Source of the DNA: a virus
IMG/VR virus record: IMGVR_UViG_3300021376_000037
Location: 12,998 to 76,997 of that record
Reading direction: 5' to 3' (one strand)
Length of the DNA: 64,000 nucleotides
In this document: in pieces, positions 6,612 to 14,256 of the stretch
Numbering within the stretch: the stretch's first letter is position 1
How the letters are laid out: every line of letters begins with the position of its first letter
Made by a program: the position numbers and the translations under genes
Notes under the pieces: model-generated
Database searches by the model: none
The model's input: the letters and a program-made list of their open reading frames with translations, nothing else
Told to the model about the DNA's origin: nothing

Positions 6612-6996
6612 TTATAAAAATACTTGTAAAGATTATAGTATTAGTAAAGTATTAAGAGAAGAAAAAAGAAGTAATGAATACTTTGAAATAATGTTAAATA
6701 ATTTAACTTTAGAAGAATTAATAGCTTTAAAGTTAGAATTAGGATATAAAGCTATTGGATTTCCTTTACATGGGTTTCCTGTTTGGAGAAGTACTAATTA
6801 TATAGTAAAAGACGCATTATTAAAATATGCTGTTTCAGCTACACAAACTAAAAGAGAGGCAATGAGATTTTTAGGTTTAGAATCAAAAAGATTCTTTAGA
6901 TTATTGAAAAAATTTAATATCAATGCCTATTTCACCAAACAGGAAAAACAAACAGATGAATATAACAAAAGATCAGTTGAAGAAAATATATCCTAA
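6598..6996 (+). CDS. Fis-type HTH protein
   Basis: C-terminal KREAMRFLGLESKRFFRLLKKFNI matches the Fis/HTH_8 pattern. Confidence 0.55.
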   Translation: MKKNNYKNTCKDYSISKVLREEKRSNEYFEIMLNNLTLEELIALKLELGYKAIGFPLHGFPVWRSTNYIVKDALLKYAVSATQTKREAMRFLGLESKRFFRLLKKFNINAYFTKQEKQTDEYNKRSVEENIS

Positions 6997-7531
6997 TATA
7001 AGACCTGAAAAACTAGAGGTATATACAAATGCTTTTAATAAAGTTTTTCCTTCTTATTGTATCGATACCCCTAGACGGATTGCTGCATTTCTTGGACAAG
7101 TCGGCGTCGAAAGCGGAGAACTCAGATACGACAAAGAACTAGGCTCTAAATGGAACAAGAGAGATGTCGGTAATCGATTTGAACCTGTTGGTACTCTTTA
7201 TGAAGGACGCAAGAATTTAGGTAATACTCAAGTTGGCGATGGTCCTAAATTTATTGGTCGCGGCATTCTTCAGTTGACAGGTAGAGCAAACTATACTAAT
7301 ATGTCTAAGAAATTAGGAGTTGATTTAGTAAACAATCCTGAATTAGCATGTGATCCAGAAATAAGTACTAAAATTGCTTGTGAATATTTTAAAGAACGTG
7401 GTTTATTAGATTTATCTGATAAATGGAATTTAGAAGAAATAACACGTAGAGTAAATGGTAATGCTAAACTTCATCATGATTTGCGTGTACAATACAGCGA
7501 AAGAGCATTAAAAACTTTAAATCCATTTTAG
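6956..7531 (+). CDS. GH19 family endolysin
   Basis: RIAAFLGQVGVESG (catalytic Glu), YEGRKNLGN, GDG.KFIGRG.LQLTGRANY, ITRRVNG. Confidence 0.92.
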   Translation: MNITKDQLKKIYPNIRPEKLEVYTNAFNKVFPSYCIDTPRRIAAFLGQVGVESGELRYDKELGSKWNKRDVGNRFEPVGTLYEGRKNLGNTQVGDGPKFIGRGILQLTGRANYTNMSKKLGVDLVNNPELACDPEISTKIACEYFKERGLLDLSDKWNLEEITRRVNGNAKLHHDLRVQYSERALKTLNPF

Positions 7532-7532
7532 T

Positions 7533-7733
7533 ATGAATAATTATAAATTTTCCTGTGATGAATGTGGATGGCATAATGCTCCTAATATGATGGCTGTTGC
7601 ACATATCGGTTTTAAGTGGTATTGTAGTAGGTGTTTAGATAAATTCTTAAAAGAAGAAAAACGTAAACAAAAAGAAAAGCAACAAAGATTAGCAGAACAA
7701 CAATTAAATATTAGTGGCAGTAAGCCTGTATAG
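7533..7733 (+). CDS. Small Zn-finger protein
   Basis: CDEC...CSRC; the last 10 nt overlap tRNA-Thr. Confidence 0.55.
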   Translation: MNNYKFSCDECGWHNAPNMMAVAHIGFKWYCSRCLDKFLKEEKRKQKEKQQRLAEQQLNISGSKPV

Positions 7734-7795
7734 CACAGCGGTAGTGCAATAGTTTTGTAAACTATAGGTCGGGGGTTCAAATCCCTCTACAGGCT
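7724..7795 (+). tRNA. tRNA-Thr(UGU)
   Basis: Acceptor GCCTGTA/TACAGGC, anticodon arm ATAGT-tt-TGT-aa-ACTAT, T-loop TTCAAAT; no encoded CCA. Confidence 0.95.
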
Positions 7796-7801
7796 CAAAA
7801 T

Positions 7802-7875
7802 GCGAATATAGCTCAGTTGGTTAGAGCAGACGCTTGATAAGCGTCAGGTCAGTGGTTCAAATCCACTTATTCGCA
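7802..7875 (+). tRNA. tRNA-Ile(GAU)
   Basis: Acceptor GCGAATA/TATTCGC, anticodon arm GACGC-tt-GAT-aa-GCGTC. Confidence 0.95.
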
Positions 7876-7879
7876 CTAT

Positions 7880-7963
7880 GCCCGTGTGGTGTAATGGTAG
7901 CCACGGCAGATTCAAAATCTGCTGCCCCTTAAAGGCGTACTGGTTCAAGTCCGGTCACGGGTA
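7880..7963 (+). tRNA. tRNA-Leu(CAA)
   Basis: Acceptor GCCCGTG/CACGGGT, anticodon arm GCAGA-tt-CAA-aa-TCTGC, long variable arm, A73. Confidence 0.95.
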
Positions 7964-7966
7964 TTT

Positions 7967-8038
7967 GCAGGAATAGCTCAGTGGTAGAGCATCACGTTGC
8001 CAACGTGACGGTCGTGGGTTCAAATCCCATTTCCTGCT
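7967..8038 (+). tRNA. tRNA-Gly(GCC)
   Basis: Acceptor GCAGGAA/TTCCTGC, anticodon arm TCACG-tt-GCC-aa-CGTGA, U73. Confidence 0.95.
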
Positions 8039-8355
8039 TGTTGATAGTAGGTAGTAGGCTTACAAGTAGCCATCTTTAATGAGTGAGACAAAATCCTTAT
8101 AGCAGATATAATTCCGTTAACAGCGGGGAGCGTTGCGAAATATTGCCCGAAGAAAGCACAACGAAACCCGAAGTCAGTTGTGTAGACACATCGTTGGTAG
8201 GAAAGCTCCTATATATCATTAGTCTTGAAGGTTGGGTAATGGGCAGAAAGTCAGGAAACTGATTGGACCGTAATCAACGATAAGATAATACTGAAAATAT
8301 TATTCTGTTGGTTGCCACCATCTCTTTAGTGTAGTAACACGTCTACTATTAACAA
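8038..8355 (+). ncRNA. Structured RNA containing a split mimic of 23S rRNA helices 43/44 (GTPase-associated centre)
   Basis: 13-bp terminal stem 8038-8050/8343-8355. The H43-like segment GTAGGCTTACAAGTAGCCATCTTTAATGAGT and the H44-like hairpin GT-GTAGTA-AC flank a multi-helix insert. No ORF; richer in GC than the flanking genes. Confidence 0.8.
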
Positions 8356-8370
8356 CTTGAAAGGAAATAT

Positions 8371-8670
8371 ATGGCTAAGAAAAAAGAAACATATTGGAAT
8401 TATAGATTATATGAAAAAGAATTTTGTAGTTCCGCTGGAGAAAAATGGACTGAATGTGGTATAATTGAAGTGTATTATGAAGGACAAAAGATTAAAGGTT
8501 ATACAGATAGTTTTATGTTCCCCTATGGTGAATCAGCTGCGGAAGCAAAAGAAGATTTCTTATTAATGAGTAAGGCTTTTGAAAAACCAGTTCTAACAAT
8601 AAAAGATTTAGAACCTAAAAAAACAAAAGCTAAGAAAGTGAAAAAGAAAAATGAGAAAAGCAAGCGTTAA
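8371..8670 (+). CDS. Hypothetical protein (WNYR...EVYY family), copy 1
   Basis: SD AAAGGA; paralog of the next gene. Confidence 0.75.
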   Translation: MAKKKETYWNYRLYEKEFCSSAGEKWTECGIIEVYYEGQKIKGYTDSFMFPYGESAAEAKEDFLLMSKAFEKPVLTIKDLEPKKTKAKKVKKKNEKSKR

Positions 8671-8959
8671 AGATTGGAATTATAGAGTATTTAAATCTGG
8701 TGATTTTTTTGGTATAGTAGAAGTATATTATGATGTTAGCGGAAATCCTGTTGGCTTTAGTGATTATAATTATCCGTTTGGTTATACTGAGGGAGAATTA
8801 AAATTAGATATATCCAGCATGCTAAAAGCTTGCAGATTACCTGTATTAACAAAAGAAGATTTTGAAAAAAAATCTGTACGTAAGAGTAAAATTGTTGTAC
8901 CATCAGTAAAGAATCCTCCACCTAAAGAGGTCATGGCTAAAGGAGATAATAATGTCTAA
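8651..8959 (+). CDS. Hypothetical protein (WNYR...EVYY family), copy 2
   Basis: Shares WNYR, GI.EVYY, P.G and PVLT..D with the previous gene. Confidence 0.75.
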   Translation: MRKASVKDWNYRVFKSGDFFGIVEVYYDVSGNPVGFSDYNYPFGYTEGELKLDISSMLKACRLPVLTKEDFEKKSVRKSKIVVPSVKNPPPKEVMAKGDNNV

Positions 8960-9207: not shown

Positions 9208-9834
9208 ATGATCTTCGGTAAAACACTCAACGACGATAAGGATAAGCAGAAGGAAGCTGCGCCACAACGTAAGTCTAGAGAAAAAGACGAAGATATTCTT
9301 GAGGTAGAACATGAAGATGGACGTATTTATTTTTATACTGAAGTTAACAAAGGTTCTATTTTAGATCTCAATAAGGCTATTCGTGCAAGCGAAGCAGATA
9401 TGCTTCATACTGCTAATGTTTTAGATATTGCTCCACCGCATATTAAATTGCATATTAATAGTCCCGGTGGCAGTTTATTTGACGGTCTTGCAGCAGTTGA
9501 TTATGTACGCAAGTGTAAAGTACCTGTTCATTCTATTATTGAAGGTATGGCAGCGTCTGCTGCTACACTTATTTCTGTAATGGCCCATAAACGTTCCATC
9601 AATAAACATTCTTATATGCTTATTCATCAACTTTCTTCTGGATTAGTAGGAAAGTATGAAGAGTTAGTGGATGATATGGAAAACAATAAAACTTTAATGA
9701 AAGCCATTAAGCAAATTTATCTGGAACGTACAAAAATCCCAGAAAACCTGTTGAAAGATATTCTTAAAAAAGATATCTATTTTGATGCAAAGCAGTGTTT
9801 GAAATACGGTTTAGTAGACCATATTATTGAATAA
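9208..9834 (+). CDS. clpP: ClpP-like protease (S14)
   Basis: INSPGGS, GMAASAA (Ser), YMLIHQ (His), D.YF.A...LKYGLVD. Confidence 0.9.
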   Translation: MIFGKTLNDDKDKQKEAAPQRKSREKDEDILEVEHEDGRIYFYTEVNKGSILDLNKAIRASEADMLHTANVLDIAPPHIKLHINSPGGSLFDGLAAVDYVRKCKVPVHSIIEGMAASAATLISVMAHKRSINKHSYMLIHQLSSGLVGKYEELVDDMENNKTLMKAIKQIYLERTKIPENLLKDILKKDIYFDAKQCLKYGLVDHIIE

Positions 9835-10573: not shown

Positions 10574-10765
10574 ATGAAAAAAAATAACAATAGCAGCACA
10601 GTTTGGTTAAGAATAATGGTAATAATAAACACACTTGCTGTTGCTAGTTATATTTTTTATGGTGAATGGGAAAAGAAACAACCACGGATGGTAAAACATG
10701 TTTGCCAAACCGTGGCTGCTGATCAAGAAAAAGGTTTGATCGCCCTTACCTGCTTAGAAGATTAA
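10574..10765 (+). CDS. Small bitopic membrane protein
   Basis: N-terminal TM segment and two Cys; ATG lies 1 nt past the tRNA-Ala discriminator. Confidence 0.6.
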   Translation: MKKNNNSSTVWLRIMVIINTLAVASYIFYGEWEKKQPRMVKHVCQTVAADQEKGLIALTCLED

Positions 10766-11580
10766 GCGCTTTCTAGTTGCCACAATCCCTCTGCAAGTGC
10801 CAATAATGTCTTAGCATTTTCTAAGCTAACACATATTGATATATGTTCATAAGCTATTGTACGTTTGCTTAATAAACCAATTACTTTACCTTTGTAAAAG
10901 ATACCTGAACCGCTATGACCGGGAGCAGAAGGAAGAGTAACTATTTCTTCGTTATTTTCATCTAATCCCATATATCTACCATCAGTTACGATGAAGATGT
11001 TTTTTGGATGATAGCCAAGAGCAGCACCAGATATTAACACACTTGCTCCAACTGGTGGTGTATTGTCAGCTAATTCTGCTGCTTCTCCTGCTATGCAAGC
11101 ACTTTTAATAACTGACAAATCTTTTTTTCCATCGCCAGCCATAGGATATGCTGCACATTTTTCACCATCTAATCTTTCAACCATCATTTCTATTGTATCT
11201 ATTTTGAAGAAATAAAAACCACTTTCATCAAATTCTAATGTTACCTTTTCTGGATGTGTTACGTGGGCAACACTTAATATCAAACTTTCTTTTTTGTTGT
11301 AGTTATTTCTGACAACCACGCCAGAACCTGTCCAACTTTTGCTTTCGCTTTTTTCTTTTGTTTCTGGTGGAACTGAAGCATTAACACCTAATAAACTAGC
11401 TAAATTGGTTCTATGACCAGAGATTTTAGTATATATTTTAACGGTGCTGCTCATTGCTTCACGGGCATCATAACCTTCTTCTTTAAACATTCCGCAACGT
11501 TTAAAACAACCGCTCATCATTACTAACATCATTGTTGCTGCTATTAATTTATGTTTAATCCATGTATTATTTCCTTTCAT
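10762..11580 (-). CDS. Trypsin-like (S1) serine protease, lipoprotein
   Basis: Lipobox MSG-C; TGSGVV, SVAHV (His), KDLSVI (Asp), GHSGSGIF (Ser); SD GGAGG. Confidence 0.88.
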   Translation of the reverse strand: MKGNNTWIKHKLIAATMMLVMMSGCFKRCGMFKEEGYDAREAMSSTVKIYTKISGHRTNLASLLGVNASVPPETKEKSESKSWTGSGVVVRNNYNKKESLILSVAHVTHPEKVTLEFDESGFYFFKIDTIEMMVERLDGEKCAAYPMAGDGKKDLSVIKSACIAGEAAELADNTPPVGASVLISGAALGYHPKNIFIVTDGRYMGLDENNEEIVTLPSAPGHSGSGIFYKGKVIGLLSKRTIAYEHISICVSLENAKTLLALAEGLWQLESA

Positions 11581-12315: not shown

Positions 12316-12897
12316 ATGCAAATCACCACTATAAACAATAACTCTAATGATAATCGTAACATCGTTGATCGGTATAAGCATGATCGTTTGGTTAAATGGA
12401 CTACGGAAATGATAAAGACTGATCTTCAACAAAAGTCTTTTCCATTTGCAGTTATGATGGAAAACTTTGTTGGAGATTTTAATCTTTCTTCTGTTCTACG
12501 TTCTTGTAATGCCATGAATGGTCGTGAAATGTTCTATTTGGGTCGTAAACAATATGACCGTCGTGGAACTGTTGGAACACATCACTACACTGATTTGATT
12601 AACGTAAAGACCCGTGAGGAGCTTTTAAAGCTAAAGGAACGATATACTTTCGTTGCACTTGAAAATAGCGTACCGCAAGCAGAATCTATTTATGATTTTA
12701 TGTGGCCCGAAAATCCACTTATTATTATTGGTGAAGAGGGAGTAGGGATTACACCAGAAACTCTTGAACTCTGTGACCGTTATGTATTCATTAATCAATA
12801 CGGCTCAGTGCGCTCAATGAATGCAGCAGTAGCGGGAAGTATTGCAATGAATGACTTTGTAATGAAATATGTAAAAAATAAAGACAAGATGCGCTAG
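12316..12897 (+). CDS. SpoU/TrmH-family RNA 2'-O-methyltransferase (SPOUT)
   Basis: Motif 1 EN....FNLSSVLRS, motif 2 IIGEEGVGI, motif 3 I...GSVRSMNAAVAGSI. Confidence 0.9.
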   Translation: MQITTINNNSNDNRNIVDRYKHDRLVKWTTEMIKTDLQQKSFPFAVMMENFVGDFNLSSVLRSCNAMNGREMFYLGRKQYDRRGTVGTHHYTDLINVKTREELLKLKERYTFVALENSVPQAESIYDFMWPENPLIIIGEEGVGITPETLELCDRYVFINQYGSVRSMNAAVAGSIAMNDFVMKYVKNKDKMR

Positions 12898-12942: not shown

Positions 12943-14256
12943 ATGTCAAAAAAATACTATGTTCTAGATACAAACGTGTATCTAAGTGACTGTGACGCAA
13001 TCTTTGCTTATAAGAATCATAACGTAGCAATCCCTTTAAAAGTATTAGAAGAAGTAGATAAGCACAAGAAACGTCAAGATGGTGTTGGAGCTAACGCAAG
13101 ACAATTTATAAGAACCCTAGATGCCCTTAGAGAAAAAGGAAGTTTAGATGACGGGGCAAAGCTAGGTAAGGGCAAAGGAATTGCCTCAGTTATTCCTTGC
13201 GATTTGTCACTACTTCCTACTGGATTTGAAAAAGATAATGCCGACAACCAAATTATTGCTGCTGCCCTAACTCTTATTCGTGAAATAGGAGATAATAAAA
13301 ATGTATTCTTAGTGTCTCAAGATATCAACATGAGAGTCAAGTGTGACTCCCTTGGTATCAATACAGAAGATTATATTCCTAATCAAATAGTAGAACGTGC
13401 AGAAGAAGTATTTACAGGATTTACACAATATCTTGTTGATGATGCTTTAATTGATCGTTTCTATGCTGGCGAAAAGATCATGTTTGAAGAAAAAGATATT
13501 AAGTTATGTCCAAATCAATTTGTAATGCTTGTATCCAATGCAAATGATAAAAAGACAGCACTAGCTCGTTTCCGTGCTTATAATAAGCCAATTACAAAAG
13601 TTCGGGAATATAAAGACGGTGTTTGGGGTATCTATGCAAAGAATAAAGAACAACAATTTGCATTAGAATTACTTATGGACCCGGAAGTTAAAATTGTTTC
13701 TATTATTGGTCGTGCTGGTGGTGGTAAAACACTCAATGCATTGGCGGCTGGCTTACAACAAATTCTAGATGACAAGGTTTATAAAAAGCTTATTGTATCC
13801 CGCCCCGTCCAGCCAATGGGTAAAGATATCGGTTATTTGCCGGGAACATTAGAAGAAAAAATGTCTCCTTGGCTAGCGCCTGTACAAGACAATTTAGAGT
13901 TTCTTATGGGTGATGATAAAGCACATTTACAAATGTTAATGGAAGCTGGAACAATTGAAATGGAAGCTTTAACATATATCCGTGGTCGTTCTATTGCTAA
14001 TGCTTTTATCATCATCGATGAATCGCAAAATTTAACTTCTCACGAATTAAAGACTATAATTACTCGGGTAGGCGAAGGAACAAAAATAGTATTAACCGGA
14101 GATATTGAACAAATAGATAATGCATATGTAGATGCTACAACAAACGGTCTTACTTATGCTGTAGAAAAGTTAAAAGATTACGAAATTTCTGGTCACATTA
14201 CATTAAAGAAAGGTGAGCGTTCCGCTGTAGCTACTCTAGCCGCTCAAGTATTATAA
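12943..14256 (+). CDS. phoH: PIN-PhoH protein (PhoH2-type)
   Basis: PIN domain VLDTNV...EEVD...DNQII...SQD; Walker A GRAGGGKT; GYLPG, YIRGRS, IIDESQN, GD.EQID. ACTATTTA at 12901. Confidence 0.93.
   Translation: MSKKYYVLDTNVYLSDCDAIFAYKNHNVAIPLKVLEEVDKHKKRQDGVGANARQFIRTLDALREKGSLDDGAKLGKGKGIASVIPCDLSLLPTGFEKDNADNQIIAAALTLIREIGDNKNVFLVSQDINMRVKCDSLGINTEDYIPNQIVERAEEVFTGFTQYLVDDALIDRFYAGEKIMFEEKDIKLCPNQFVMLVSNANDKKTALARFRAYNKPITKVREYKDGVWGIYAKNKEQQFALELLMDPEVKIVSIIGRAGGGKTLNALAAGLQQILDDKVYKKLIVSRPVQPMGKDIGYLPGTLEEKMSPWLAPVQDNLEFLMGDDKAHLQMLMEAGTIEMEALTYIRGRSIANAFIIIDESQNLTSHELKTIITRVGEGTKIVLTGDIEQIDNAYVDATTNGLTYAVEKLKDYEISGHITLKKGERSAVATLAAQVL

Follow-up and report, generated by a model that had tools for sequence, protein, structure and literature searches.

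A predicted multi-helix RNA domain inserted in a phage-borne copy of the ribosomal GTPase-associated centre

The DNA studied here is a stretch of 64,000 nucleotides (the window, to which all coordinates refer unless a locus is named), positions 12,998 to 76,997 of IMGVR_UViG_3300021376_000037, an IMG/VR virus record of 76,997 bp with a CheckV completeness of 42% and a G+C content of about 30%. The sequencing runs that hold it are nearly all DNA runs, from lake water and other freshwater metagenomes. Four tRNA genes (Thr, Ile, Leu and Gly) occupy 7724-8038, and at the very next base after the end of tRNA-Gly (8038) begins a non-coding RNA element of 316 nt (8039-8354, plus strand), which lies between the tRNA genes and the next open reading frame (ORF), starting at 8371. 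Judged from their letters, the two ends of this element rebuild H43 and H44 of 23S rRNA, that is, the GTPase-associated centre (GAC), and the copy is interrupted at about A1089 by an insert of 240 nt (8085-8324, plus strand). The insert is predicted to fold as a conserved RNA domain, and we consider it fairly probable that this domain is an accessory one, specific to its class and similar in kind to the expansion segments of rRNA, within a free-standing phage copy of the GAC. A first-pass annotation of the same DNA had already drawn a multi-branched domain here, and its coordinates and letters are all correct; what became of its helices and of its proposals on function is reported below.

The GAC copy and its family

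Regions 8052-8084 and 8325-8341 of the window align to positions 1056-1088 and 1090-1104 of 23S rRNA, and together with an outer stem they make up the frame in which the insert is held:

8039-8051 with 8342-8354, plus strand: terminal stem of 13 bp, H42-like, recognised by pairing, with four positions compensatory in locus L121
8052-8084, plus strand: 5' half of the GAC, with the H43 stem-loop GGC-UUACAAGUA-GCC (8057-8071) and the junction AUCUUUAAUGAGU, recognised by alignment to 23S positions 1051-1088 and equivalent to E. coli ~1057-1088
8325-8341, plus strand: 3' half of the GAC, consisting of UUUA, the H44 hairpin G8329-U8330 [GUAGUA] A8337-C8338, and ACG

From 8057 to 8084 the window reads GGCUUACAAGUAGCCAUCUUUAAUGAGU, in which an UUAGAAGCA-like H43 loop is followed by an AUC.UUUAAAGAGU junction, and from 8329 to 8338 it reads GU[GUAGUA]AC against a family consensus of GC[GUAAUA]GC, an H44 hexaloop closed by the 1091-1100 and 1092-1099 pairs. 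Besides these, the 13-bp terminal stem and an arm near A1089 with its own helix are both present. The base triple 1072.(1092-1099) is U/U-A in the window (U8067, U8330-A8337) and covaries across the family, since the 91 distinct complete elements among the matches listed comprise 73 with C/C-G, 17 with U/U-A and one exception. In X17, a close variant from a lake run, G8057A and C8071T occur together, so that G1062-C1076 becomes A-U.

The family was collected with the degenerate pattern GGCTTANAAGNAGCCATC in IMG/VR, which gave at least 118 stretches, and real 23S genes are almost absent from the GAC-pattern matches listed. More than 100 IMG/VR contigs share one layout: a 5' half ..GGCUUAGAAGCAGCCAUC.UUUAAAGAGU (..CCAUC.UUUAAAGAGU), a variable arm, and then a 3' half UUUGGCGUAAUAGCACACC. 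The site of the arm is constant in every arm-bearing element among the matches listed, to which the arm statistics given next also refer, and it lies between A1088 (plus GU) and the 1090 position; the first-pass annotation had put the insertion at the 1090/1091 junction, and the break in the window is moved to A1089. Arm length ranges from 23 to 346 nt (median 132), and the closing helix covaries, with 61 helix types and at least three of the four pairs formed in 83 of 91 elements. The arms split into many unrelated classes (the largest with n = 25), and in all-against-all blastn the arm of the window matches none of these. A GAC copy without need of the insert, as had been proposed, is borne out by the family: L018:3718-3770 is an insert-free copy of about 55 nt (GUGGCGUAGGCUUAGAAGCAGCCAUCGCUUAAUCAACGCGUAACAGCGAUCAC), the arm of L055 is a 23-nt hairpin, and other elements carry unrelated arms at the same site.

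Searched with Rfam 15, the whole window yields only tRNAs at the gathering threshold, and a relaxed search (E <= 10) of 7950-8450 adds chance matches to PGK and ycf2. Neither the RNA element nor 20 kb of the window has a blastn match among GenBank phages, and full-text literature searches returned no description of a phage GAC mimic. The parent RNA is an undescribed family of phage rRNA mimics, with no Rfam 15 model and no literature description found. Unannotated GAC copies are present in the cultured phages Pseudomonas pf16, Aeromonas 4_4572, Ralstonia RSP15, Xanthomonas XacN1, Serratia BF, Paenibacillus Pd_22F and the Erwinia pEa_SNUABM phages, and these cultured carriers make the family open to experiment.

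Several members show peculiarities of their own. Two tandem GAC-mimic copies, 318 nt apart and each behind a tRNA-like 3' end, occur at L062:5138-5473, and a phage tmRNA gene (L161:1163-1508, tag ANDNVELSDYALAA) lies directly upstream of the GAC-mimic RNA of that phage. L168 has a normal insert and 3' half and, in place of the H43 loop, the short hairpin GUCACGCUAAAGAC; its contig starts 54 nt upstream (region L168:1-60), and the odd hairpin is possibly an assembly artefact. L128 (743-771) and L159 (on the minus strand, immediately upstream of the insert), two members that are not sisters, have a second extra hairpin of 8 bp within the GAC copy; it comes after CGAAAGGAC, between the 3' strand of H43 and the UUUAA junction, and the window does not have it.

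Homologues and predicted fold of the insert

The insert belongs to a class that we name 'GACAAAAUCC...GGUUGGGKAAU', whose 13 distinct members are six close relatives, six distant ones and L145; every one is on a phage or freshwater metagenome contig and within a GAC copy. L121 was reached through a relative of the downstream 99-aa ORF and has the same tRNA-RNA-ORF order and a clearly homologous arm, and more members were obtained with patterns from conserved insert blocks, run in IMG/VR and the JGI metagenomes. No occurrence of the domain outside a GAC copy was found by exact patterns internal to the insert, nor in a set of prokaryote genomes with a single representative of each species. From the six close sequences a covariance model (R1, from alignment A4) was built for the 5' sub-domain; it recovers all 13 members end to end with E values of 1e-44 to 2e-5, the window scoring 171.6 bits (E 4e-36, end to end), and it has no match in the other 118 GAC-mimic loci (L002-L119). 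Candidates set aside in these searches were the one IMG/VR match to GGCTTACAAGNAGCCATC (L120), which is in a coding region; the pattern matches L167, L169, L170, L171, L173, L175 and L176, which are coding or have no R1 match and were taken as chance; a second R1 match in L159 (2296-2430, E 0.009), which is within a coding region; and an nhmmer match in L025, which has no related features.

Compared across these members, the insert is a conserved, apparently self-folding domain of at least ten predicted helices, built around a four-way junction that P1 closes and from which three branches leave: a P2-P3 sub-domain enclosing P4-P7, the P8 hairpin, and a long hairpin of P9a, P9 and P10. Its features are the following, all on the plus strand:

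8085-8088 (GAGA) with 8321-8324 (UCUC), plus strand: P1, which closes the insert at the four-way junction; closing helices covary family-wide
8089-8094, plus strand: joiner CAAAAU, identical in all 13 members; it was in the search patterns, so its invariance is partly ascertainment
8095-8104 with 8220-8231, plus strand: P2, of which P2a (CCUU, 8095-8098 with 8228-8231) is firm and P2b is degenerate in the window
8105-8110 (GAUAUA) with 8212-8217 (UAUAUC), plus strand: P3, with both sides changed in all six pairs and 100% paired
8113-8127 (8113-8116 with 8124-8127), plus strand: P4 hairpin UCCG-UUAACAG-CGGG, 98% paired, with a variable loop
8135-8138 with 8143-8146, plus strand: P5 hairpin GCGA-AAUA-UUGC, weak in the window
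8147-8155, plus strand: conserved joiner CCGAAGAAA, class consensus CC.GAA; with C8146 it is the C-run of the pseudoknot drawn in the first-pass annotation
8156-8183, plus strand: P6 hairpin, GCACAAC with GUUGUGU, all seven pairs compensated; the loop opens with the conserved GAAACCC (8163-8169)
8198-8211, plus strand: P7 hairpin UAGGA-AAGC-UCCUA, class motif UAGGKWAA, with changes on one side only
8232-8249, plus strand: joiner UUGGGUAAUGGGCAGAAA, class consensus UUGGGKAAU.GGAMA, unpaired in the covarying model
8250-8263, plus strand: P8 hairpin with a GNRA loop, GUCAG-GAAA-CUGAU, 100% paired; A-U becomes G-C in L165
8264-8266 with 8318-8320, 8270-8278 with 8307-8315, and 8285-8290 with 8298-8303, plus strand: P9a, P9 and P10, a long bent hairpin based on covariation in the six close sequences

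In the covariance-model alignment of the 13 members, 93.6% of the cells of the 5' sub-domain are paired. Sliding the partners lowers this to 35-46%. Of the 32 pairs, 23 show changes on both sides; none of 500 shuffles reaches the observed values. P3 is the most telling helix, with zero mismatches in any member and with such different versions as GCUAGA/UCUAGC, UAACAGA/UCUGUUA, CGCUGA/UCAGCG, UUGCAA/UUGCAA and GCUAGC/GCUAGC, and a hand alignment concurs. In the same alignment seven of nine pairs of P2 change on both sides, and P2 is in a table made by hand as well. The P4 stem appears as CUC/GAG, CCA/UGG, CCC/GGG and CCUG/CGGG, P5 is replaced in distant members by well-formed hairpins with GAAA or UAAC tetraloops, and a hairpin is kept at the place of P7 in all members of the class. 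For the 3' sub-domain, the six close sequences give 92.9% paired cells against 37-51% with slid partners and six double changes, and the second and third helices of this sub-domain alignment, which belong to the long hairpin, have four pairs and one pair, respectively, with changes on both sides. U8264-A8320 in P9a is G-C in relatives, and A8317T in X17 restores a pair with A8267. The distal parts vary inside the class: P10 is missing from L159 and L161, and L160, L162, L163, L168 and L172 have a different 3' sub-domain with CCGAUAAAAAG. Nevertheless, the fold and the unpaired motifs near P1 are kept in 13 diverged contigs, and therefore the domain appears to be under selection.

The multi-branched domain of the first-pass annotation thus survives as a domain, since 12 homologues on other contigs keep a common fold, whereas about half of the helices drawn in it do not. 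GAGA/TCTC is P1, so that the claim of a separate domain, closed on itself by its own helix, stands; CACAAC/GTTGTG is P6, with compensatory changes in seven of seven pairs; TCAG-GAAA-CTGA is P8, which reads GUCGG/CCGAU in L165; and ATAATA/TATTAT is P10, a hairpin kept in relatives in a shifted register. TAGGA/TCCTA marks P7, where a small hairpin is indeed kept, although close relatives preserve just its GG/CC core. By contrast, AGCAGA/TCTGTT (overlapping P3 and P9), the 9-bp ATCGTTGGT/ATCAACGAT (overlapping P9) and TGGT/ACCA (overlapping P9 and P9a) are unsupported, because they pair in the window only and would take up bases of covarying helices. When the insert is shuffled with its dinucleotides preserved, 85% of the shuffles have some stem of 9 bp or more, and the mean number of stems that reach 6 bp is 41; these three helices are therefore no more than chance would be expected to give. 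P2, P3, P4, P5, P9 and P9a had been missed, and the nested topology first proposed is wrong in the middle and in the 3' part. A comparison of insert length among homologs, which had been suggested as a check, shows that length varies across the family (23-346 nt) and that the fold is shared within the 13-member class. For the window, the calculated energies are -39.4 kcal/mol for the comparative model, -25.9 kcal/mol for the earlier nested set and -56.0 kcal/mol for the unconstrained minimum free energy (MFE) structure. Two other routes to a fold were discarded: the MFE structure of the whole element mispairs the GAC (z -2.2), and in MAFFT with RNAalifold on 12 sequences the distant members were too badly aligned for use.

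The conserved joiners might contact one another. A pseudoknot between ATTGCCC and GGGTAAT had been drawn, and its GCCC/GGGU core can form in every member of the class, although the letters are near-invariant; only the window has the AUU/AAU extension. The alternative partner GGGCA (8241-8245) likewise owes its existence to an insertion of 3 nt that no other member shares, so that a switch built on it is unsupported, its letters being confined to the window. For GGGK (8234-8237), the C-run after P5 and the ACCC of the P6 loop are equally good partners, and the second G-run at 8241-8243 is a further possible one. In L163 and L172 longer C-runs go with longer G-runs. It is plausible from these letters that a pseudoknot exists with an ambiguous partner, which the near-invariant letters and the ambiguous loop alignment do not allow us to assign, and joiner 8232-8249 is likely the pseudoknot or tertiary partner of the C-runs.

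As regards expression, a scan for promoters and terminators gave nothing beyond shuffles, and a promoter-like GAGACA-N16-TATAAT was rejected, as it overlaps P3, whose covariation favours RNA structure over a promoter. The sequencing runs that hold the stretch show no joints; their sole RNA-library contig, which belongs to a relative, covers 8064-8217 only and spans the boundary of GAC and insert unbroken, at a depth of 2.6 and with DNA carry-over possible.

Downstream of the RNA, the window has two tandem paralogues of a small WNYR...EVYY protein (phrog_21321, 8371-8670 and 8651-8959), and a phrog_21321 homologue stands directly 3' of the RNA in nine of the 13 class members, whatever lies upstream. 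None was found in the other GAC-mimic loci and classes. The protein has no Pfam or NCBIfam family, and its AlphaFold model (pLDDT 79, a beta-beta-beta-alpha fold) has no Foldseek match in the PDB at E <= 0.001 and a best VIA-align Z of 2.7, so the fold is uninformative. Other genes nearby encode an endolysin-like protein (6923-7531), a ClpP-like or head-maturation protease (9208-9834), a trypsin-like peptidase on the opposite strand (10762-11580) and a 2'-O-methyltransferase of the SpoU family (12316-12897, Pfam E 6.5e-23). The last was considered as a methylase of A1067 and dropped, since its nearest models are those of RlmB/TrmH, generic and below all NCBIfam cut-offs, with no specific link.

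Possible roles of the insert

We hypothesize that the GAC part mimics a ribosomal site off the ribosome, for a putative partner that could be uL11 or another reader of the GAC, and that the insert probably adds a second binding surface besides it. On the H44 side the two halves of the GAC would be held by P1 alone, a helix of 3-4 bp, and because P1 is the sole link on that side, the folded insert might clamp H43 and H44 so that they can adopt the packing of the GAC fold. One or two pseudoknots between the conserved C-runs and G-runs could stiffen the junction, and the remainder of the insert would then present a binding surface specific to the lineage. That the arm is functional is suggested by the persistence of its five-helix core and unpaired motifs through complete turnover of the helix sequences. 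Several points weigh against this picture. A clamp is not needed for the GAC fold itself, as L018 has no insert and others have a plain hairpin. The H43 loop, near-invariant in rRNA, is less conserved here and varies within the class (UUACAAGUA, UUUGAAGUA, UUAAAGGUA, CUAACGGUA and UUAAUGGUA), with G1068C in the window, A1067U in L159 (UUUGAAGUA) and other changes in L160, L162 and L172, which weakens a strict reading as a factor decoy. In addition, the alignment derived from the covariance model is fitted to that model and leans to its structure, the model of the 3' sub-domain was built on six close sequences only, and the invariance of GAGACAAAAUCC is partly imposed by the search patterns.

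Alternatively, the insert might be a gate or aptamer, in which binding of a ligand or protein to the conserved junction would steady the short P1 and so turn the fold of the split GAC on or off, much like the P1 helix of a riboswitch aptamer. P1 has just 3-4 bp and borders a multi-way junction whose unpaired letters (CAAAAU and UUGGGKAAU.GGA) are the best conserved of all, pseudoknots are possible, and the insert class is confined to one lineage, as accessory sensors often are. However, no known riboswitch class in Rfam 15 matches, neither an expression platform nor a candidate ligand is apparent, and other members of the family manage with a plain hairpin or no insert; we regard a gate as unlikely, if the foremost of the alternatives. 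That the insert is ballast, a tolerated expansion without function, folded merely to spare the GAC copy, ranks below it in our estimate. Family arms do vary enormously in length and sequence, and distal parts differ even within the class (the loss of P10, the alternative 3' sub-domain with CCGAUAAAAAG), but neutral arms would be expected to shrink, and here a five-helix 5' sub-domain and its unpaired motifs survive complete helix turnover. It is still more doubtful that the insert serves multimerisation, with kissing loops or GNRA-receptor contacts assembling GAC copies into a cage or lattice, an arrangement demonstrated in other ornate RNAs associated with phages. P4 (7 nt), P8 (GNRA) and P10 (A-rich) would offer exposed loops, and the RNA sits among tRNA genes, as ROOL and GOLLD RNAs often do; yet no self-complementary conserved loop was found, the loops of P4, P8 and P10 vary within the class, there is no Rfam match to ROOL, GOLLD, HEARO, raiA or OLE, and at 316 nt the element is smaller than such RNAs. 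Excision is the least credible of all. An intron or self-cleaving ribozyme that joins the GAC halves had been proposed in the first-pass annotation, and without 8085-8324 the RNA would indeed be an unbroken GAC-like one, which fits the existence of L018 with no insert. However, Rfam 15, which holds described families only, gives no match at E <= 10 to group I (RF00028), group II (RF00029) and their relatives or small ribozymes, nor to any riboswitch; the arms, from 23 to 346 nt, have no shared core, as is typical of a peripheral arm and not of an intron, and introns are out of the question for the arms of 23-60 nt at that site; no splice-site letters are conserved across classes; P1 is a plain closing helix; and the RNA-library contig crosses the 5' boundary without a joint, which is a weak point. 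We conclude from its letters that the insert is not an intron or ribozyme, no feature of either having been seen.

Two further readings look to resemblances with other RNAs, and both seem to us improbable. One is that the 5' sub-domain descends from or imitates a second rRNA module, 23S ~672-825 (H32-H36). The class profile matches 23S rRNA twice, at ~672-721 and ~777-825 (2.0 bits and E 0.09 each), two matches occur in none of 1000 shuffled 23S sequences, and control DNA of 603 kb gives only four; in the window, 8225-8239 (UUGAAGGUUGGGUAA) is identical to 23S ~702-716 in 15 of 15 letters, 8162-8170 (CGAAACCCG) to ~673-681 and 8239-8246 (AUGGGCAG) to ~693-700. Nevertheless, the scores are tiny, the test was post hoc, and at the level of the class the sharing is only GGUUGGGUAA; moreover, P4 has no 23S counterpart and the register of H34 differs. 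Because the segments are permuted in order and the helices do not correspond, we do not call the 5' sub-domain a second mimic, and think such an origin highly improbable. The other reading, for which the chance seems to us slimmer, would make the RNA a tRNA adaptor, in which the GAC docks a tRNA elbow while the P4 loop shows a codon to the anticodon, by analogy with the Stem I of a T-box acting in trans; it is the boldest version of the idea that the insert, as a second functional module, turns the GAC copy into a bifunctional adaptor. On the ribosome, H43 and uL11 dock the elbow of the A/T-state tRNA. The 15 nt of P4 (8113-8127, CCGUUAACAGCGGGG) are the exact reverse complement of a tRNA-Asn(GUU) anticodon arm that is present in many IMG/VR tRNA genes, the P4 loop carries AAC or AAU plus a purine in nine of 13 members and CAC in L159, and the gene lies among tRNA genes. 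The P4 loop of L159, UUCACAG, is antisense to the tRNA-His loop, and those of L162 and L172 have AAUAU and AAUAC. But the loops GUUAA, GCAA and UAAA of L160, L163 and L168 are unfit, the independent lineages number only about three, no T-box model is matched, and the P4 loop also fits an anticodon-loop consensus (Y32 U33 NNN R37) with Val anticodons, which makes the resemblance ambiguous. If the RNA did bind tRNA, the phage could sequester, protect or sense a particular host tRNA.

Taken together, the inserts of the family show that large folded domains, each specific to a lineage, have been added to the GAC copy by phages time and again, at a single site. With 13 members, at least ten predicted helices, strong covariation and invariant unpaired motifs, the insert is a well-defined and well-supported new structured-RNA domain, and its binding partner would tell a simple decoy from a bifunctional adaptor that links the GAC partner to something else.

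Comparison with known systems

The closest relation is to the GAC of rRNA itself (H42-H44, E. coli 1051-1108), the uL11 and thiostrepton site. The phage copy resembles it in the H43 stem-loop, the UUUAA junction with G1087-A1088, the H44 hexaloop hairpin, the covarying 1072/1092/1099 triple and a terminal closing stem. Unlike the rRNA, it is free-standing and located among tRNA genes, the 5' strand of its H44 is broken at about A1089 by 240 nt, its H43 loop is altered in the window (G1068C), and its uL11 site is putative.

The insert itself resembles rRNA expansion segments and the variable domains at the periphery of RNase P RNA and of group I introns, where lineage-specific helices likewise grow at one tolerated site of a core, diverse in length and sequence between lineages with the fold kept within a lineage. 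However, the core of the phage RNA has only about 75 nt, and the insert is three times larger and has invariant unpaired motifs of its own. Leaders of ribosomal protein operons (the L10 leader RF00557, L1, S15) are also non-ribosomal RNAs that copy a protein-binding site of rRNA, although they act in cis as mRNA leaders of bacterial operons and carry no large inserts, whereas the phage RNA is stand-alone, has unrelated small ORFs downstream and matches no leader in Rfam.

ROOL (RF03087) and GOLLD (RF01998) are multi-helix non-coding RNAs of uncharacterised role that, like the phage RNA, often lie beside phage tRNA genes. By contrast, the phage RNA has no sequence or structure match to them, is smaller and contains a recognisable rRNA copy. 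Finally, T-box Stem I (RF00230) offers an analogy only, in a loop that might present a codon plus a purine and in a distal platform for the tRNA elbow; the phage RNA has no match to this family, lacks its K-turn, interdigitated T-loops and antiterminator, and has a loop that is not conserved across the class.

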